Shown: positions 30,044 through 39,835 of the stretch, one piece after another
How the letters are laid out: every line of letters begins with the position of its first letter
Position numbering within the stretch: position 1 is the first letter of the stretch
Virus record (IMG/VR): IMGVR_UViG_3300020391_000003
Span: 120,325-184,324 of that record
Direction: 5' to 3' (one strand)
Source: a virus
DNA: 64,000 nt
Notes under the pieces: generated by a model
Databases searched by the model: none
Told to the model about the DNA's origin: nothing
What the model saw: only the letters and a program-made list of their open reading frames with translations
Program-made: the position numbers and the translations under genes

Positions 30044-30068
30044 AACAGCCCCAAGGGGCTGTTTTTTT
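30044..30068. terminator. Terminator between the convergent nrdB and DUF1501 genes
   Basis: AACAGCCCC-AA-GGGGCTGTT hairpin plus T tract. Confidence 0.85.
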
Positions 30069-31332
30069 ATGTCAAGATATCCAAGATTGGTGGCTCGCCA
30101 TTTGAAACTTTAAAAGGTCTTCCGCTAGGAGAGTATGTAATTTTTTCAATACTCAATCCCATAGCGTAAGCAATTGTTGCATTAATTGATGGAACATCAA
30201 CTCCTTTTTCTTCAACGTAATGTGCCCGCTTATCAGATTTACCATGAACATAACCTTGCTTAATTCCGCCTCCAGCAAAAAATACGCTGAACGCAGACGG
30301 ATGATGATCTCTTCCAACTCTTCCGGCTTTGATTTCTGGAGTTCTTCCAAATTCACTTGCTACAACAACCATTGTATCTGAAAGCATACCTCTGCGATCA
30401 AGATCTGAGAGCAAGGTCGAAAGTCCATCATCTAAAACTTTTGCTTTGTTTTCTAATCCGCCAAAAACATCATTATGCATGTCCCATCCTCCATACGATA
30501 CTTCTACAAAACGCACTTTGTTTTCTATAAGTCTTCGAGCTAAAAGACAACCTTGACCAAAATTGTTTTGTCCATATTCTTCTCTTAATGCTTCTGGCTC
30601 GTGAGTAAGGTCAAATGCTTCGAGGTCTTTACTTTTCATAAGTTTTATTGCATCGTCATATAAATCAGAATAAGCTCTAACTTGTTTTTGAGGAAATTGC
30701 CTAGTAAAACCTTCGTTTAAAATACTTGATGCATCTAGTCTGTCTTTATACATATCTTCTTGTACATATCCTGATTTTTTTACGTTTTGTATGCCAGCAT
30801 CTGGGTTTCCAAGAGGCAGTGGGCCGTGCTTACTTTCGAAATATCCCGCGCCAATAATTCCACTTCCGCCATTGATTTTAACATTATCTGGAAGGCTGTG
30901 ATTTAATTTTCCACATAATTTACTAATCCAGCTGCCCATGCTTGGGTGAATAATTGTGCCACGCTTTTGATAACTTGTATGCAAAAGATAGTTTGCTTGT
31001 TCATGTGCCCCTTGATTGCTATTTACCGATCGAACTAACGACGCTAAGTGCATTTGTTGCGCTGTTCTAGGAAGCCAGCTGCCAATCTGAATGCCATCTG
31101 CAGAAGTATTTATTGCCGTAGTTTCACCCATAACCTCTTTGTTTTCTGGCTTTGGGTCAAATGTATCTATGTGAGTCATTCCTCCTGACATATTTAAAAA
31201 TATAACGTGCCTAGCAGTAGGGACTCGTTCTGTGCGGGCGATTAAATCTTGTCCATATATTAGAGCGTTTACTCCGAGGTATGCTTTGGCAATATTTTGC
31301 GCAAATTGTCTTCTAGTTAATTCATCGTTCAT
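30067..31332 (-). CDS. DUF1501-family protein with a Tat-like signal
   Basis: TRRQF twin-Arg; VIFLNMSGGMTHIDTFDPK, GQGCLLARRLIE..VRFVEV, GGWDMH, EFGRTP, GRDH. Confidence 0.9.
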   Translation of the reverse strand: MNDELTRRQFAQNIAKAYLGVNALIYGQDLIARTERVPTARHVIFLNMSGGMTHIDTFDPKPENKEVMGETTAINTSADGIQIGSWLPRTAQQMHLASLVRSVNSNQGAHEQANYLLHTSYQKRGTIIHPSMGSWISKLCGKLNHSLPDNVKINGGSGIIGAGYFESKHGPLPLGNPDAGIQNVKKSGYVQEDMYKDRLDASSILNEGFTRQFPQKQVRAYSDLYDDAIKLMKSKDLEAFDLTHEPEALREEYGQNNFGQGCLLARRLIENKVRFVEVSYGGWDMHNDVFGGLENKAKVLDDGLSTLLSDLDRRGMLSDTMVVVASEFGRTPEIKAGRVGRDHHPSAFSVFFAGGGIKQGYVHGKSDKRAHYVEEKGVDVPSINATIAYAMGLSIEKITYSPSGRPFKVSNGEPPILDILT

Positions 31333-31352
31333 AATAATTATTTGTTTACACT

Positions 31353-33401
31353 TTACTTGATAAAAATAAATTCATGGCTATTTAATAGTATCCATGATAC
31401 ATGTTTGAATCCATCTTTTTCATCAATAAATTTTGTTAATAAATTTGATTCACTAGTTTTAGGTTTTCTAGATAAAATCGATAAAAATGCATTTTCTACT
31501 TGTTTTGTTTTTGTTTTTTCTGATTGCATTAATTCTATAAAATCTGCATCTTTTTTGTTCAATATATTTGTTTCTACAAATCCATTTAAAAGATTAAGTA
31601 CTTGTGTTGTATTTGGCTCTGAATTGCTATTATCTATTTGCTCTTTATCACTACCACCAAACTGCCTTATTAAGTGTCCTCCTGGAGCTGGATAAGAAAG
31701 ATAGCTGCTTCTAACAAGGTTGCGATCCTTTACCTTGACTTTTTCATATTCAAGGCCCGAAGCTTTTTCAATTAAACTAACAAAGTTTCTGCTGTTTGGG
31801 TTTTCATCTGCAAGGGCTTTGATGTCTTGATAGATTTCCGGGCCAGTCATGTCTTTATATCTTTTGTATATAATAGAATAGTCTTGTTGATTTTGCATGT
31901 GAATTCTAGATTGACTGTCTATATCATTATAAACTAAAGTTACCAAAGAATCCCAGAGTTGCTCTCCTGTCATTCTTCTCAATATAGGACCTTCAAAATT
32001 ATAGTCTTCCAAGCTTTTGTAATCTTCTTTTTTACTTTCTCTTTGAAACAATCTAGTATTCAAAAGAATTCTTTGGTATTCTTTCAAGTCATAATTCACA
32101 CTAACCATTAATCTTTCCAGATATTTCATCAGCTTTTCGTTGCTAGCCAAAGTATCATCCATCATCGAATCAATAGGTTCTATAAGGCCAGCACCAAAAA
32201 TATGTTTCCATATTCTGTTTGCAATCATTGTTGTAAATCTAGGATTATCTTTACTTGTCATCCAGTTCGCAAAAACTTTTCTACTATTACCTTCTATTTT
32301 TTCAATCGGCTTGGGGGTAAATATAGCTTTTGCTAAAACAGTATCTCCTGGATTAGCATTATCTTCCGCAAAATCTACAGGCAATTTTATTGTTCCTGTG
32401 CCATTATTTTCTATTCCAAACTGTATAGAATCTCTTATTTGATTTCGCCAATTATTAAATGTTCCAGCTCGAGGATCAGCGTCACTATCAATACTTCGAC
32501 TTAAATCATTTATAACCTTACCTTCTTTTCTTAATCTAACATTACCAATACCAGAAGTAAATGCTGTCATTTCATAAAATTCTTTTTGTGTCCATCGATC
32601 AAAAGGATGATCGTGGCACATCGCGCACTCTAGTTGGGTTCCCAAGAAAATTCTAACTGTATGAGAAAGATTATCTGCTTGCATGCCTCTATCTCTTAAA
32701 TAATAACTTATGGCTTCTCCGCCATCATATAGCTTACCAGTGCTTCCTAATAACTCTTTTACAATTTGATCATATGTTTTGTTTGCAGTTATTGCTTCTC
32801 TTAGCCACTTGCGATAAACAATACCCACACTAATATTGGTTCCATTTATTCCGTCTTTAATTCGCAACATATCGCTCCACCAGTTTAATTGATGATTTAC
32901 ATAACCACTTGAATTTAAAAGTTTTTGAATTAACTTATCTTTTCTATCTCTGTCATTATCATCAGTAAATTCAATCACTTCTTTGTGAGTTGGTATTCTG
33001 CCTATAGTTGTTAAATACAATCTTCTTGTATAAGTATACTCGTCTAATTCTTTTGTTTTTTGTAATCTTTTTGAACGTAAATTTTGATCTATAAGCGTGT
33101 CTATATAGCTAGAGTACTGTTTTAGGGTTTTAGTATCAAGAGGCGTTTTAAGTGGCGGTATGGAGCTGTATCGACCTTCTGAGTAGTAAAGTTCTATTTG
33201 CTTTTGAGAGTCTTTTGTTAGAAGCTCTGTTTTAATTCTAAATTGTTGCAAATCTGAAGATCTTTTTAATAAAACATGTGTTGTATTAGCTTCTATAATT
33301 TCTGCGTCTAATGATTTGCCGTTATTAAAATAAAGCTTACTTGCTAAGGTTATTGGCGCTGTTACCAATAAAACAAATAGTATAAATATAAATTTTTTCA
33401 T
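31353..33401 (-). CDS. DUF1549/DUF1553 (PSCyt2/PSD1) domain protein
   Basis: Signal peptide; RRLYL..GRIPT, FLGTQLECAMCHDHPFDRWTQKEFY, NPRF..ANRIW..FG.GL, RRMTGEQLWDS, WILLNSHEF. Confidence 0.9.
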   Translation of the reverse strand: MKKFIFILFVLLVTAPITLASKLYFNNGKSLDAEIIEANTTHVLLKRSSDLQQFRIKTELLTKDSQKQIELYYSEGRYSSIPPLKTPLDTKTLKQYSSYIDTLIDQNLRSKRLQKTKELDEYTYTRRLYLTTIGRIPTHKEVIEFTDDNDRDRKDKLIQKLLNSSGYVNHQLNWWSDMLRIKDGINGTNISVGIVYRKWLREAITANKTYDQIVKELLGSTGKLYDGGEAISYYLRDRGMQADNLSHTVRIFLGTQLECAMCHDHPFDRWTQKEFYEMTAFTSGIGNVRLRKEGKVINDLSRSIDSDADPRAGTFNNWRNQIRDSIQFGIENNGTGTIKLPVDFAEDNANPGDTVLAKAIFTPKPIEKIEGNSRKVFANWMTSKDNPRFTTMIANRIWKHIFGAGLIEPIDSMMDDTLASNEKLMKYLERLMVSVNYDLKEYQRILLNTRLFQRESKKEDYKSLEDYNFEGPILRRMTGEQLWDSLVTLVYNDIDSQSRIHMQNQQDYSIIYKRYKDMTGPEIYQDIKALADENPNSRNFVSLIEKASGLEYEKVKVKDRNLVRSSYLSYPAPGGHLIRQFGGSDKEQIDNSNSEPNTTQVLNLLNGFVETNILNKKDADFIELMQSEKTKTKQVENAFLSILSRKPKTSESNLLTKFIDEKDGFKHVSWILLNSHEFIFIK

Positions 33402-33484
33402 AAAAAAACCGCATTAAATAATAAACAACCTATGCCAAGAATCAATAAAAACTCTAATAAGAAAAAAAGATTTGATGTATTCAT
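33398..33484 (-). CDS. Possible 28-aa hydrophobic peptide (MNTSNLFFLLEFLLILGIGCLLFNAVFL)
   Basis: Translated by hand; ATGA-coupled to the DUF1549/1553 gene. Confidence 0.35.
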   Translation of the reverse strand: MNTSNLFFLLEFLLILGIGCLLFNAVFL

Positions 33485-33487
33485 TAT

Positions 33488-33516
33488 AGTATATACTAAT
33501 ATTAATATCTTGTCAA
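33488..33516 (-). promoter_or_regulatory. sigma70-like promoter for the DUF1549/1553-DUF1501 pair
   Basis: TTGACA, 17 nt, TATACT. Confidence 0.7.
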
Positions 33517-33529
33517 TCAAAAATTACAC

Positions 33530-33554
33530 AAAAAAACCGCATTTAAGCGGTTTT
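33530..33554 (-). terminator. Terminator after hsp20
   Basis: AAAACCGC-TTAAAT-GCGGTTTT hairpin with T run on the minus strand. Confidence 0.8.
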
Positions 33555-34849: not shown

Positions 34850-36358
34850 TTAACTTTTACTTTTTTCTTCGGATTTTTTCTTATCCAAAATTTCTTTGTG
34901 CTTTTCCATAAAAACTTTATGGCTAGGTCCTGCCATATATAACGTCTTACCGTTTTTATCTTTGAGGGTATGAAAACCTTGCAAGCCAAGTTTTTTTGCG
35001 TCCTTAAGAGCTTCTTCTTTTGTTTCAAAATAATGTTTCATGGGGTCAGGATTACCTTGAGCTCTTTTTAAAGCTTCTTTTGTGGGCCTATCTTTATCTC
35101 CAGGCTTTGCTGGTCGATAGTTTTTGCCCATACGTTTTTTCTTTTTGCGAATATTTTCCCAAAGACTTGAGTAAGATTTTTTCTTTTTCTTTTTGTCTTT
35201 ATCTTTTTCGTGATGACCAGATTCGGACTCTTTCATTTCTTCGCCTTGCTTTTTTAAAATTGCTTCTTGCAATGGCTTGGGAAGTTTCTTTTGTTTTTCG
35301 GTTAAACCAGCTTTACTTTTTTCATACAATGAGCTTTTCATTTTTTTGTATTGAATTGCGCAAGCTGCATAAGTTTTATCTTTATCCATTCCAGCGGTAT
35401 TAACTAAATCATCATCATATTTTGCACAATGATGCATAAATGCCTTTTCCATGTAGTCCATAGAACTTGCTTCAGATTCTTCAGTTTCTTTGTGATCTTC
35501 TCCCTTGGTCATTTTTGTTACGCTTTTCTTTGACCACATTTTGCAGCTCCAATAACGTGCTTTTGTTTTGGGTCCGGGATTTTCACAATTATGTCTAGCT
35601 CTAAAGTTCTTGCGACGATTTGGATCATCGCGTTTAATTTCCATGTTCGGATCTCCAAAATTTACTTTTACTACATTGCCCTTTTCATTTTTGACATAAA
35701 CAGAAAACTTTTTTGGACCGCCTGGAGTTCTAAATGGTTTATTGAGTTTTTTACCTTTGTTGGCTTCAGCCGCCCAACTTTCTTCATCAACATACTCTTC
35801 AAAACCTAATTCGTCAACGTCCGAAAAAATTTCGCTCCACATTTCTTCGGTGAAGTCTGGGTCTTCTTGTAATTGGTCGTTATAAATATCAAGCTTAGCT
35901 TGAATAAAATCTTCTTCAGTCAAAAAGTTTTCTTCTCTAATACCGTCATCGATAATTACATTGGCACTAGCTTTAGCGATATCTTGGTCAGCTTTTCTGT
36001 AGCTATCTTTTACTTTACCACCACGCACCATTTTAAGAAATGTATTAACTCTTGCCATAGCCCATTGACCTCTTGATTTTCCTGGCCTGTGACTGGATGA
36101 AAATGCTCCAGCTCCTCTGCGATAAACTTTTTTAAGCTGTGAAAGAGTAACTTTTTTACTATACTTAGAGTTATGTTCTTTTACTTTATTTTTTAAAGAC
36201 TCTAAAACTTTGGCTGAAAAATTAATTTTACCACCTTTTTGGCCAGCACTACCTGGCTTATTTTTAGAGGAGCCTTTTTTACGTTCTGATTTTTTAGCTG
36301 GAGTTTGAGCGGAGCTTTTTGGTCCAGGGCGTTTTGCGGAGCTGTATTTATCTTTCAT
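34850..36358 (-). CDS. Lys-rich multi-module protein, putative head/internal protein
   Basis: Modules YRRGAGAFSSSHRPG..WAMARV and KKFSVYV..KVNFGDP..RRKNFRARH; GTGTA 9 nt upstream. Confidence 0.6.
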   Translation of the reverse strand: MKDKYSSAKRPGPKSSAQTPAKKSERKKGSSKNKPGSAGQKGGKINFSAKVLESLKNKVKEHNSKYSKKVTLSQLKKVYRRGAGAFSSSHRPGKSRGQWAMARVNTFLKMVRGGKVKDSYRKADQDIAKASANVIIDDGIREENFLTEEDFIQAKLDIYNDQLQEDPDFTEEMWSEIFSDVDELGFEEYVDEESWAAEANKGKKLNKPFRTPGGPKKFSVYVKNEKGNVVKVNFGDPNMEIKRDDPNRRKNFRARHNCENPGPKTKARYWSCKMWSKKSVTKMTKGEDHKETEESEASSMDYMEKAFMHHCAKYDDDLVNTAGMDKDKTYAACAIQYKKMKSSLYEKSKAGLTEKQKKLPKPLQEAILKKQGEEMKESESGHHEKDKDKKKKKKSYSSLWENIRKKKKRMGKNYRPAKPGDKDRPTKEALKRAQGNPDPMKHYFETKEEALKDAKKLGLQGFHTLKDKNGKTLYMAGPSHKVFMEKHKEILDKKKSEEKSKS

Positions 36359-36399: not shown

Positions 36400-37458
36400 T
36401 TAACTTAGTAATGCATAATCATTGTTATACATCTTTTTAACTAAATCATTAAAGTTTGTTTTTCTTTTCCATCCTAATTCTTTTTCAGCTAAAGATGGAT
36501 CTCCTTGCAATAGTTCAACTTCCGCAGGTCTATAGAATTTTGGATTAATATTCAATAGCTCTAAATCTGTAATATTATTATCCTCTGCAATATAATTTGA
36601 TAAAAACAACTTTTCGTTTATGCCTGATCCTTTCCAATAGCATGGAATGTTTGCTGCCGAAAAACAATTTTCTACAAAACTTCTTATTGAGTGCGTTTGC
36701 CCTGAACTAAGAACATAATCTCTTGGTCCTTTAGAATTATTCATCATCAACCAGATACCTTCCACGAAATCTTCTGCATCTGACCAATCTCTTTTTGCTT
36801 CCAAATTACCAAGAGATAAAGGCTCAAAAGGTTTTTTATTTTCTAGACATTTAACTATTTTAGCGACACCTTTAGATATTTTTCTGGTAACAAATTCTTC
36901 TCCTCTTCTTGTTCCTTCGTGATTGAATAGCCAGCCTTGAACTGCATATATATCGTAAGAATCTCTATAAACTTTTACAAGATGTCTTGCGGAAGCTTTT
37001 GAAGCTCCATAAGGACTTCTTGGTCGAAGTGGATGATTTTCGTCCTGAGGACAATGTATGACATCTCCAAATTCTTCGCTGCTGCCGGCATTATAATACT
37101 TGCAATTTGGGCAATGTTCAGCTATAGAAGTTAACTGATAAAGCACCGACATAGTATTATTTTCCATATGGCTAATAGGCATTGACCAGCTGTTGCCAAC
37201 AAAAGAGTTTGCGGCAAAGTTTAAAAAATAATCTGGTTGTTCTTTAAGAATAACATTAGAAACATTTTGTTGATCTGTTACATCAAGGTCTATCAACTTG
37301 AACCGATTATTATTTTCTAAATGTCTAATATTTTTATGGTTTTGAACGCTTAACCTTCTTATACCTCCTATTATCGTATCTGTGGTATTTTTAAGTAAAT
37401 AATCTACCATGTGACTGCCATCTTGCCCTGTGACTCCTGTGATTATTATTTTTTTCAT
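36400..37458 (-). CDS. gmd: GDP-mannose 4,6-dehydratase
   Basis: ITGVTGQDGS, AGSSEEFG, PRSPYGASK, FNHEG..RG, LGNLEAKRDW, FYRPAEV. Confidence 0.92.
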   Translation of the reverse strand: MKKIIITGVTGQDGSHMVDYLLKNTTDTIIGGIRRLSVQNHKNIRHLENNNRFKLIDLDVTDQQNVSNVILKEQPDYFLNFAANSFVGNSWSMPISHMENNTMSVLYQLTSIAEHCPNCKYYNAGSSEEFGDVIHCPQDENHPLRPRSPYGASKASARHLVKVYRDSYDIYAVQGWLFNHEGTRRGEEFVTRKISKGVAKIVKCLENKKPFEPLSLGNLEAKRDWSDAEDFVEGIWLMMNNSKGPRDYVLSSGQTHSIRSFVENCFSAANIPCYWKGSGINEKLFLSNYIAEDNNITDLELLNINPKFYRPAEVELLQGDPSLAEKELGWKRKTNFNDLVKKMYNNDYALLS

Positions 37459-37889
37459 TTTAATATGTCTGGATTTTGTTTAATTGTTTGTTTTGCGATC
37501 AAATCTTTTAATCGAGTAGTAGACCACTCATGTGAGCGAGTGGTGTATATAACTTTAGGAGGAAGATCATCTCCTGTGAAGCTTTTGCCAATGTAATCTT
37601 CTCCAAGTATACGAACATCAGGTTTCCAAAATTTTATTAAATCAACAAGCTCTTCTTCTGTTTGATACATGTATACTTCGTCGATATATTTTATAGCCAT
37701 TAATGCTTTGTATCGTTCGTAGTACGGTATAACAGGTTTGTATTTTGTGAATCGCGTGGCACTTGGGTCTTTCTGTAAAAAAATTAAAAAACGATCACAA
37801 TGTCGTTTCGCCTCCTCAAAAGTATAAATGTAACCTGGATGCAATAAATCAAAATTGCCTGCCGTGAATCCTACTATTTCTTTATTCAT
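37455..37889 (-). CDS. Cytidylyltransferase-like (HxGH family) nucleotidyltransferase
   Basis: AGNFDLLHPGY, ER..L.AIKYIDEV, ILGEDY, STT; probable start MNKEIV at 37889. Confidence 0.8.
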   Translation of the reverse strand: MNKEIVGFTAGNFDLLHPGYIYTFEEAKRHCDRFLIFLQKDPSATRFTKYKPVIPYYERYKALMAIKYIDEVYMYQTEEELVDLIKFWKPDVRILGEDYIGKSFTGDDLPPKVIYTTRSHEWSTTRLKDLIAKQTIKQNPDILK

Positions 37890-37890
37890 T

Positions 37891-38514
37891 TTAATTATGT
37901 ACAAATAAAATTTTAGGTATTTTTTGAGTTTTATCAAGAGAAATATGTTGCAGACAGCCTTGAAAGAAGTTCCAGTCTGCTCCAAAACTTCTAAAGGGAA
38001 AACCTACTTTCATAGCTATATCCGATTTGACAGCAACGCAGCCCATGTCAATCCAAGTGTCTTTTAGTTGAGAATTTAATAAGCCATATCCACATATTCT
38101 ATCAAAATTAACATTTCGATGATTATGAATACAATCCCAATATATAAAATCTTTATCTTGATTGGCTAAATTATTAATATCGGACACCCAAATTGGTACA
38201 TAATAATTATCGCAATTAGTTATTGTAATATAAGGTGCATCTGAGATTCTATTTTGTAAACCATACTCACGCAATGGATGGCCCCATTTGTTGGTGCGAG
38301 TTTCAGTTGCAGACAATACAATTCTAGAATTATCTAAATATCCATTGCTAGATAAATCTTCTTTCAGATTTTCAAAAATTTCTCCAGCACCATCATGAAT
38401 AATGTGAAGACGCCAATTGGGACTTGTTTGAGACCGAATGCTATCAATAAAACATTTTAATTTGAAGCCATGGTCATAAGTAACAGCTATAATTTCTAAT
38501 ATAGGTTTGTTCAC
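37891..38514 (-). CDS. GT-A fold glycosyltransferase (GT2-like)
   Basis: IIAVTY, HIIHDG, TNCDNYY, ADW. Confidence 0.7.
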   Translation of the reverse strand: MNKPILEIIAVTYDHGFKLKCFIDSIRSQTSPNWRLHIIHDGAGEIFENLKEDLSSNGYLDNSRIVLSATETRTNKWGHPLREYGLQNRISDAPYITITNCDNYYVPIWVSDINNLANQDKDFIYWDCIHNHRNVNFDRICGYGLLNSQLKDTWIDMGCVAVKSDIAMKVGFPFRSFGADWNFFQGCLQHISLDKTQKIPKILFVHN

Positions 38515-39443
38515 ATCAATTCTTTTAATCCTTCCTCAAAATTTACACTAGGAGACCAATTCAATTCATCTTGAATTTTATTATTATCAATTGCATAACG
38601 CCAATCGTGACCTAATCTATCTTTCACAAACTCTATTTGGCTTTCATCCTTGCCTAGCAGTTTAAGAATGGTTTTAACGATATGAATGTTTCGCACTTCA
38701 TTTTTGCCGCCAATATTGTATACTTCACCAATTTTTCCTTCATGCAGAACTGCATCGATACCAGAGCAATGATCTGAAACATGAATCCAGTCGCGAATAT
38801 TTCTACCATCACCATAAACAGGAAGTTTTTTTCCTGCTTTAGCATTTTTAATTATTAATGGAATTAATTTCTCTGCATGTTGATTTGGCCCGTAATTGTT
38901 TGAGCAGCGAGTAATTAAAATAGGATAGCCAAAAGTCTCATAAAAACTGCGACATAATAAATCTGCGCTAGCCTTGCTTGCAGAATAAGGGCTATTAGCT
39001 TGTAACGGAGTGTTTTCAGTAAAAGCATCGTCTTCCTCAGTTAAACTGCCATATACCTCGTCTGTGGACACTTGAAGGTATCTCTCGACACTCGGGCAAT
39101 CGTGAAGCAAACTCAATAAAGAATGTGTTCCATTTATGTTAGTCTGTACGAAAGGAGTTGAGTCATTTATACTATTATCAACATGACTTTCCGCCGCAAA
39201 ATTAACTATGTAGTTTATATTGTTCGTCTGCACAAGACTTTTAATATAACTAGTATCATTTATATCTGATACTATTAATGAATACCTATTTGAGTTAGAT
39301 ATATCATCATGTATATTGTCAAAATTAGAGGCATATGTACGAGAATCTACATTAAATATTTTGTAGTCGTATTTATTAAATACATATTTAATAAAATTAC
39401 TTCCAATAAAACCTAAGCCTCCTGTTACTATGATTTTTTTCAT
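38511..39443 (-). CDS. rfbB: dTDP-glucose 4,6-dehydratase
   Basis: VTGGLGFIGSNF, NFAAESHVDNSI, VSTDEVYG, SPYSASKAS, RCSNNYGP, DRLGHD.RY. Confidence 0.92.
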   Translation of the reverse strand: MKKIIVTGGLGFIGSNFIKYVFNKYDYKIFNVDSRTYASNFDNIHDDISNSNRYSLIVSDINDTSYIKSLVQTNNINYIVNFAAESHVDNSINDSTPFVQTNINGTHSLLSLLHDCPSVERYLQVSTDEVYGSLTEEDDAFTENTPLQANSPYSASKASADLLCRSFYETFGYPILITRCSNNYGPNQHAEKLIPLIIKNAKAGKKLPVYGDGRNIRDWIHVSDHCSGIDAVLHEGKIGEVYNIGGKNEVRNIHIVKTILKLLGKDESQIEFVKDRLGHDWRYAIDNNKIQDELNWSPSVNFEEGLKELM

Positions 39444-39835
39444 TTTAACATTAGTATTGAATTTTTTGTTTCTTCTGTTATGGGAGATGGTAGGCAATTC
39501 TTTTCTATTTTAAAAAATCCCCACTCTTCATGCTCTACAGCATCTATAGCTTTTTGATCTGGAAATATTAAATCATCAACATCTGAATAAAAAACATAAA
39601 ATGTGCCTCCTTTATAATTTTCAAAATAAGTAAGAAATTCGATTGGTGAATTTAAAATAATATTTGTTTCTTCAAAGAATTCTCTTTTTGCAGCATCAAT
39701 AGGTTTTTCAAAATCTTCACACATACCACACGGCATTGACCAATATCCACCAAGGATTTCGCATGTTCTTGATCTTCTTCCTAGAAGAGCAAGATTGTTG
39801 AATCTTATAATTATTCCTGCAGAATTAATTTGCAT
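39440..39835 (-). CDS. NUDIX hydrolase
   Basis: W.MP.G..E..E.P.DAAKREFFEETN Nudix box. Confidence 0.85.
   Translation of the reverse strand: MQINSAGIIIRFNNLALLGRRSRTCEILGGYWSMPCGMCEDFEKPIDAAKREFFEETNIILNSPIEFLTYFENYKGGTFYVFYSDVDDLIFPDQKAIDAVEHEEWGFFKIEKNCLPSPITEETKNSILMLK

Follow-up and report, generated by a model that had tools for sequence, protein, structure and literature searches.

Why would a marine phage keep two genes for exported proteins whose relatives belong to families without assigned function in bacteria? The question is raised by a gene pair in the IMG/VR virus record IMGVR_UViG_3300020391_000003 (184,324 bp), the final 64 kb of which is the stretch analyzed here (64,000 nucleotides, referred to as the window; coordinates are those of the window unless otherwise stated). 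The pair consisted of a PSCyt2/PSD1 (DUF1549/DUF1553) gene, hereafter the partner, followed by a DUF1501 gene. As described in the first-pass annotation of the window, both frames were intact, co-oriented and adjacent, with Pfam matches and 20 nt between the partner stop and the DUF1501 start:

31353..33401, minus strand: PSCyt2/PSD1 protein, 682 aa (Pfam, translation, AlphaFold2 (AF2) model)
30067..31332, minus strand: DUF1501 protein, 421 aa (Pfam, AF2 model, structural comparison)

DUF1501 together with PSCyt1, PSCyt2 and PSD1 has been described as a "conserved genetic module" in Planctomycetota, Verrucomicrobiota and Lentisphaerota, without an assigned function (Kamneva 2012, PMC3542564; He 2017, PMC5615132). 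Sulfatase genes have been noted near PSCyt genes (He 2017, PMC5615132), and PSCyt1 is not obligatory for the module, since loci without it also exist (PMC3542564). The phage pair was recognized as this known module of the Planctomycetes-Verrucomicrobia-Chlamydiae (PVC) bacteria from its families and adjacency (PMC3542564, PMC5615132), in line with the earlier reading. The papers searched neither connected DUF1501 or PSCyt with phages nor assigned them a function established by experiment. Judged from its sequences and genomic context, the pair would with a probability of roughly 0.55 be an auxiliary enzyme of host origin, exported and integrated into a periplasmic uptake or nutrient-processing pathway of the host.

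The carrier of the pair was an uncultured marine tailed phage. The virus record was rated 100% complete by CheckV and had a GC content of about 34%. Pfam and other matches in the window included the terminase large subunit, a DnaE-like polymerase, a ClpB-like ATPase, DnaB, a primase, a RecA-like protein, a PD-(D/E)XK nuclease and both ribonucleotide reductase (RNR) subunits, with terminase and replication genes on both sides of the pair. The pair had neither DNA nor protein matches in GenBank phages, and no cultured relative of the phage was found, since its terminase matched distant Firmicute phages only (~24% identity).

Related viruses retained the pair. A pattern scan of IMG/VR yielded 27 viral loci with DUF1501 relatives (97 to 53% identity), in 19 of which a DUF1549/1553 gene lay upstream, on the same strand and among the same replication genes. 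The complete record and these 19 loci bear out that the pair is phage-borne and retained. Every frame was intact (20 of 20 partners, 675 to 695 aa; 28 of 28 DUF1501 genes, 420 to 445 aa). The ratio of nonsynonymous to synonymous substitutions (dN/dS, Nei-Gojobori, pairs with usable dS) had a median of 0.030 for DUF1501 (0.014 to 0.055, 22 pairs) and 0.049 for the partner, compared with 0.017 and 0.027 for the small and large RNR subunits and 0.018 for the polymerase; against the closest relative (L002), dS was about 0.9 to 1.1 and dN 0.02 to 0.06. The pair is under strong purifying selection, similar to that on the phage RNR and polymerase genes, and the relaxed selection that would have undone the first-pass proposal is excluded (dN/dS 0.03 to 0.05). 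GC content at third codon positions (GC3) was 0.22 and 0.26 in the two genes, 0.20 to 0.29 in phage genes and 0.53 in Opitutia homologues, so that the composition of the pair has fully drifted to phage-like values (amelioration). A chimeric or misassembled host fragment, the other outcome that had been thought fatal, is excluded because GC3 was phage-like and the same synteny recurred in 19 independent assemblies. Flanking viral genes, a cellular source clade, conservation in related viruses and purifying selection together identify the pair as auxiliary genes.

The cellular source was sought among prokaryotes represented by one genome per species. The nearest DUF1501 proteins were encoded in marine Opitutia/Puniceicoccaceae metagenome-assembled genomes (MAGs; 54 to 59% identity), followed by other Verrucomicrobiota and Planctomycetota. 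The nearest relative of the partner was the gene directly upstream of the Opitutia DUF1501 (40 to 43%), in the same gene order and with an alignment reaching the N-terminal region. In the DUF1501 tree, the clade of the window (20 viral sequences, support 100) was sister to Opitutia plus a second viral clade, itself nested inside Opitutales (support 96). A single phage clade was rejected by the approximately unbiased (AU) test (p 0.00016), for a group defined after the tree was seen. The partner tree matched the DUF1501 tree in placement and inner branching, with the phage clade (support 100) beside Opitutia, so that the pair must have been acquired and inherited as a unit. On the evidence of both trees, an ancestor of the phage lineage took the two genes together from a relative of marine Opitutia (Verrucomicrobiota).

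In ten Opitutia loci (L038-L047), as far as each reached, the homologous genes formed an operon of a TonB-dependent receptor, PSCyt2/PSD1, DUF1501 and a PSCyt1 cytochrome c. This set often continued with a PAS protein and a SufS-type desulfurase and was flanked by clearly cellular genes. The receptor scored below every NCBIfam subfamily cut-off. The phage pair shared the order of this operon, which held the nearest relatives of both its genes, whereas no relatives of the donor receptor or of the PSCyt1 cytochrome were found in the whole phage genome, and the cellular partner was about 90 aa longer. Three Opitutia genomes of 3.8 to 4.5 Mb with the nearest cellular copies of the pair (G006, G007 and G008) held 131, 140 and 104 Sulfatase-family matches, and with 104 to 140 sulfatase genes each the donor genomes are therefore regarded as specialists of sulfated algal polymers; this richness is context and not evidence for a sulfate ester as substrate. 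Marine Opitutia are the probable source of the pair and perhaps the host of this phage lineage (120 to 220 kb, without cultured member), as judged from gene relationships. The tmRNA of the phage (ARAGORN; G000:C1:66721-67082 of the phage genome, outside the window; tag peptide AKNINSVESFSQEGLALAA) was uninformative about the host, its match to Opitutia genomes being limited to the universal 3' 30 nt.

Viral DUF1501 genes were not confined to this lineage. As suggested in the first-pass annotation, viral DUF1501 pairs were searched for in IMG/VR: DUF1501 relatives were encoded in 258 viral stretches (profile scan), and a DUF1549/1553 gene lay inside the 6-kb flank in 53 of the 79 loci kept. Viral copies fell into at least four clades, and the module has therefore been captured repeatedly by low-GC viral contigs. 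One further contig (L048, JAYQMT010000004.1, 210,818 bp, GC 0.35), binned as a Cellvibrionales MAG, carried a lone viral-type DUF1501 gene and could be aligned along 8.2 of 13.3 kb to the phage loci L022 and L027, with a nucleotide identity of 74 to 75%; most likely, binning has placed a phage genome in a bacterial MAG.

What kind of protein the phage kept was approached first through DUF1501. The protein matched PF07394 over profile positions 1-389 of 390 (E 8.7e-109, 364.7 bits against a cut-off of 27); all three Pfam families of the pair scored above their cut-offs, as anticipated, and neither phage protein was matched by any NCBIfam model at E <= 1e-5. The N-terminus carried the signal expected for export by the twin-arginine translocation (Tat) pathway:

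31300..31317, minus strand: twin-arginine motif T-R-R-Q-F-A, residues 6-11 of the DUF1501 protein (translation)

The two arginines were conserved in nearly all aligned homologues having an N-terminus, with RK in the second DUF1501 copy of L009. The AF2 model (predicted local distance difference test, pLDDT, 82.7) had its best structural matches in ENPP6, ENPP7, PafA and bacterial NPP (VIA-align Z 20.3 to 19.4, root-mean-square deviation 3.1 to 4.5 over 240 to 281 residues), effectively tied with sulfatases (Z 19 to 17, about 250 residues), while Foldseek ranked sulfatases and LtaS on top (E 3e-7 to 4e-5). On this model, DUF1501 is an alkaline-phosphatase-superfamily fold. Profile-profile comparison with nine sulfatases of the donor genomes (Opitutia) gave a probability of 91.8% (hhalign, E 7.5e-7). 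Sequence-profile matches in the PDB were weak and all on the strand ending at the metal-binding pair, where the "SEFGR" of DUF1501 aligned with the sulfatase metal-binding "SD[NH]G". Matches to Phosphodiest were weak as well, both in Pfam (E 0.024) and against the Opitutia Phosphodiest proteins (probability 11%).

Among 28 homologues (31 to 84% identity), D59, K61, H110, W283, D284, H286, E327-F-G-R330, P332 and H343 were invariant. The fold and the "SEFG"/"SD[NH]G" correspondence are common to DUF1501 and the formylglycine (type I, S1) sulfatases, but identity to these was only about 10 to 14% and their catalytic motif was missing. C-x-P-S-R was present in 7 of 14 recovered Opitutia sulfatase ORFs (7 of the 9 that were aligned), whereas residue-level alignment found no C/S-x-P-x-R in DUF1501, in which the helix aligned to the formylglycine helix reads (Q-G-A)-H110-E-Q-A, starts at H110 and has this histidine as its sole invariant residue. 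A formylglycine sulfatase is thereby ruled out. Nor were the calcium ligands of sulfatases matched in full, E327-F328 aligning on D-N/H as one acidic position and the Asp-Asp pair after strand 1 falling on M47-S48. Compared with its top structural matches, the two-metal phosphoesterases NPP/ENPP6/ENPP7 and PafA, DUF1501 had an invariant set rich in Asp and His but no invariant Thr/Ser nucleophile (S/T53 was Ala in some members), and the residue-level profile alignment was weak. From their order in the sequence, the invariant D59, K61, H110, D284, H286, E327, R330 and H343 suggest a metal centre of different make-up, and Tat export fits a predicted metal centre assembled in the cytoplasm. In each of the three Opitutia genomes, the sole Phosphodiest (PF01663) protein (L188-L190) read "SEYG" at the Asp-His position of classical NPPs, a motif similar to the "SEFG" of DUF1501, and this protein may be a bridge between the two families.

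The partner combined PSCyt2 (PF07583, E 5.7e-40, 137.9 bits, residues 100-283) and PSD1 (PF07587, E 1.3e-32, 113.6 bits, residues 374-658) in one protein, in the expected order and both above the gathering score. Its N-terminus, MKKFIFILFVLLVTAPITLA followed by SK, read as a Sec-like signal (residues 1-21). This signal and the CAMCH of the partner, like the twin-arginine signal of DUF1501, had been noted in the first pass and were all seen in the translations:

32613..32627, minus strand: CAMCH, residues 259-263, within the C-A-x-C-H-x-H-P...W motif of PSCyt2 (alignment)

C259, A260, C262, H263, H265, P266 and W270 were invariant among 43 diverse homologues, as was a further histidine, H576. 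CAMCH is a candidate heme c or metal site, the partner having both the CxxCH and the Sec export expected of a c-type cytochrome. In the AF2 model (pLDDT 90.1), which placed a short helix at 258-261, an SH3/Sm-like beta-barrel (about residues 18-76) that resembled Sla1 SHD1 and Hfq (Z about 6) was followed by a large all-alpha body. The body had no match in the PDB: Foldseek returned none at E <= 0.001 with the whole 682-residue model as query, and VIA-align gave a best Z of about 6 on short helical stretches only, although with the model searched whole a sub-domain may have a known fold. DUF1800 was considered as a remote homologue but was unsupported (hhalign probability 3.5%, E 0.012, last 77 residues only). 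The partner family comprised 16,227 clusters at 50% identity.

Set against the PVC module as a whole, the phage pair displayed the same Pfam families, order and adjacency, with Tat on DUF1501 and a signal peptide plus CxxCH on the partner. It differed by an SH3-like barrel in place of the PSCyt1 or carbohydrate-binding domains, by the lack of the PSCyt1 cytochrome c domain in both the partner (no match) and its neighbours, and by being a single copy of phage-like composition where PVC genomes hold dozens of paralogues.

How the pair would serve the phage can be outlined from these features; redox chemistry, nutrient scavenging and envelope modification had been named as possible roles in the first pass. 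During infection, both proteins would be exported to the host periplasm, where DUF1501 would be a metal-dependent enzyme with a small organic substrate, of ester type or related, and the PSCyt2/PSD1 protein would be its substrate-binding or cofactor-bearing partner. The pair would work with a TonB-dependent receptor and a PSCyt1 cytochrome c supplied by the host, the flankers of the orthologous Opitutia pair, and would keep a rate-limiting step of periplasmic nutrient processing running as host gene expression declines. Processing of an imported organic substrate is favored because of the TonB receptor context and the enzyme fold of DUF1501.

Several observations weigh against this proposal. 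The sulfatase/NPP nucleophile position of DUF1501 had no conserved Cys, Ser or Thr, and hydrolysis is therefore not assured. The phage (GC 34%) differed from the donor-like Opitutia loci (49 to 59%) in composition. A sub-lineage of the second viral clade had DUF1501 without the partner, and the promoter of the pair recurred in no relative but the closest (L002), L005 and L011 having similar sites. Finally, the cytochrome c of the donor operon and the CxxCH of the partner are at least equally strong pointers to redox chemistry.

The latter is the basis of the alternative that survives best, a periplasmic redox module, which we consider possible though clearly less probable. The partner would bind heme c and DUF1501 would hold a cofactor loaded in the cytoplasm, hence its Tat signal; the imported substrate would be oxidized or reduced, with electrons handed on to the PSCyt1 cytochrome c of the host, and energy or a redox-dependent step of uptake would thereby be sustained. 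The invariant CxxCHxHP and H576, the Sec export that heme c attachment requires, the PSCyt1 and cytochrome c gene directly downstream in Opitutia operons and the absence of the usual nucleophile from DUF1501 are all consistent with it, and Tat export is typical for cofactor-bearing enzymes (PMC3542564). Yet its fold places DUF1501 among hydrolases, transferases and mutases, there is neither a PSCyt1 domain in the phage protein nor a donor-like cytochrome gene in the phage genome, and the helical body of the partner matches no known cytochrome fold.

Envelope remodeling appeared unlikely. DUF1501 would here act like the LtaS, EptA and OpgB transferases and modify a surface polymer or receptor, for instance for superinfection exclusion or easier lysis. 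LtaS, LtaP, EptA, EptC, PbgA and YejM were indeed among its structural matches (Z 16 to 17), and glycan-synthesis genes of GDP-mannose dehydratase-like type were located near the pair (36400-39497). However, such transferases are membrane-anchored and use a Ser/Thr nucleophile that is not conserved in DUF1501, the cellular orthologues adjoin a TonB receptor and a cytochrome rather than envelope-synthesis genes, and dozens of paralogues per PVC genome (PMC3542564) fit substrate diversity better than envelope upkeep. That the pair is an assembly artefact or a recent neutral passenger without a role is hardly credible, for although the families are cellular and no cultured GenBank phage carries them, the 19 assemblies agree in the phage genes that surround the pair, its GC3 is phage-like, its synonymous sites are near saturation at the dN/dS given above, and it diverges together with the phage core genes.

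Whether the pair is self-contained is a separate matter, on which the layout of the region bears. The own promoter, the GTGTA motif and the flanking terminators reported in the first pass were all in place:

33533..33554, minus strand: terminator-like hairpin and T run, 3' of the upstream Hsp20 gene (sequence)
33488..33516, minus strand: sigma-70-like promoter TTGACA-17-TATACT, upstream of the pair (best in the region, 11/12 matches)
31347..31351, minus strand: GTGTA motif in the 20-nt spacer, 14 nt before the DUF1501 ATG (sequence)
30044..30063: hairpin in the gap where the RNR small-subunit and DUF1501 genes converge (T tail clear on the plus strand and weaker on the minus strand)

The promoter-like site lay in the intergenic gap just past the Hsp20 terminator hairpin. 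Promoter-like sites totaled 17, not above the 16.4 found in shuffles, and only the TTGACA-17-TATACT site was therefore taken as meaningful. GTGTA also preceded DUF1501 in L002, L003, L009/L016, L015 and L018 and preceded the partner gene in several relatives; in other relatives, GTGTA or the end of a tRNA gene preceded the module. Such tRNA-like 3' ends (T-arm plus CCA) were located a few bases to tens of bases before the module in both viral clades, upstream of the partner in L007, L012 and L026 and upstream of a lone DUF1501 in L020-L022, L024, L025, L027 and L028. tRNA genes may thus mark points of cargo uptake or swapping in these phages. The window itself contained no tRNA gene, and ARAGORN placed one tRNA-Thr elsewhere in the phage genome (81387-81462, outside the window). 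A mini-ORF of 28 very hydrophobic codons (33398-33484, minus strand) was located between the promoter-like site and the partner, its TGA overlapping the partner ATG (ATGA); it is probably a chance frame, because it was absent from L002.

The further claim that the pair is a self-contained, minimal functional unit was not supported as stated, given that the donor operon has two more genes, that phages with DUF1501 only exist, that the pair is split in relatives and that the promoter is poorly conserved. The two genes were not contiguous in several relatives, being separated either by a phage gene that is rich in Lys and lacks a signal peptide or by a further DUF1501 paralogue. The former was a DUF5824-like homologue, as at 8442-9995 of L017, where it lay between the module genes with its segments ordered differently from the copy in the window (34850-36358, minus strand), which was extremely Lys-rich and likewise without signal peptide; this gene looks unrelated to the module. 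The latter (L009/L016, 8709-9956) was a distant paralogue of 34% identity and GGMAHQESWDPK type, starting with MNRKNF, between the partner and the main DUF1501. No PSD1 match was obtained in five DUF1501-only phage genomes rated 90 to 100% complete, while a control search of the window's genome did find PSD1, and DUF1800 was found neither in the window's phage nor in four DUF1501-only phages. In the latter group, DUF1501 had as neighbours (L022, 7503-9564 and 11342-12148; L024, 11253-12918) a nucleoside deoxyribosyltransferase-like protein, a UvdE-like endonuclease, an APS-kinase-like/nucleotidyltransferase fusion and an inorganic pyrophosphatase. The phage pair most likely depends on host components.

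The module in PVC bacteria was already known; the analysis adds the operon of four genes in the donors, the exclusion of a formylglycine mechanism at residue level, the number of viral copies and their clades, and a sub-lineage with DUF1501 only. Marine phages carry other exported nutrient-acquisition genes, such as the pstS and phoA of cyanophages, with known substrates and hosts. The present pair is likewise host-derived, with predicted periplasmic products, and kept by ocean phages under selection, but differs in encoding two proteins that would cooperate.

Few orphan families of Planctomycetota and Verrucomicrobiota are larger than DUF1501 and PSCyt/PSD, which have dozens of copies per genome and to which, to our knowledge, no function has been assigned since 2004. 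Bacterial genetics of the family is hard because the paralogues are redundant, whereas in the phage one copy is kept under polymerase-strength selection, and a single pair therefore has a measurable fitness effect. The phage pair is compact enough to express and assay and makes a very large orphan family more accessible to experiment. Its repeated capture by ocean phages would add a new host function to those that marine viruses take over. More tentatively, the pair may be a portable two-protein periplasmic enzyme whose step limits phage yield in marine Verrucomicrobia with more than 100 sulfatase genes, hence its capture at least four times, and may represent a widespread, so far unrecognized class of auxiliary genes. 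If so, the compact phage versions would be the most direct way into the biochemistry of this family, which spans more than 16,000 sequence clusters.

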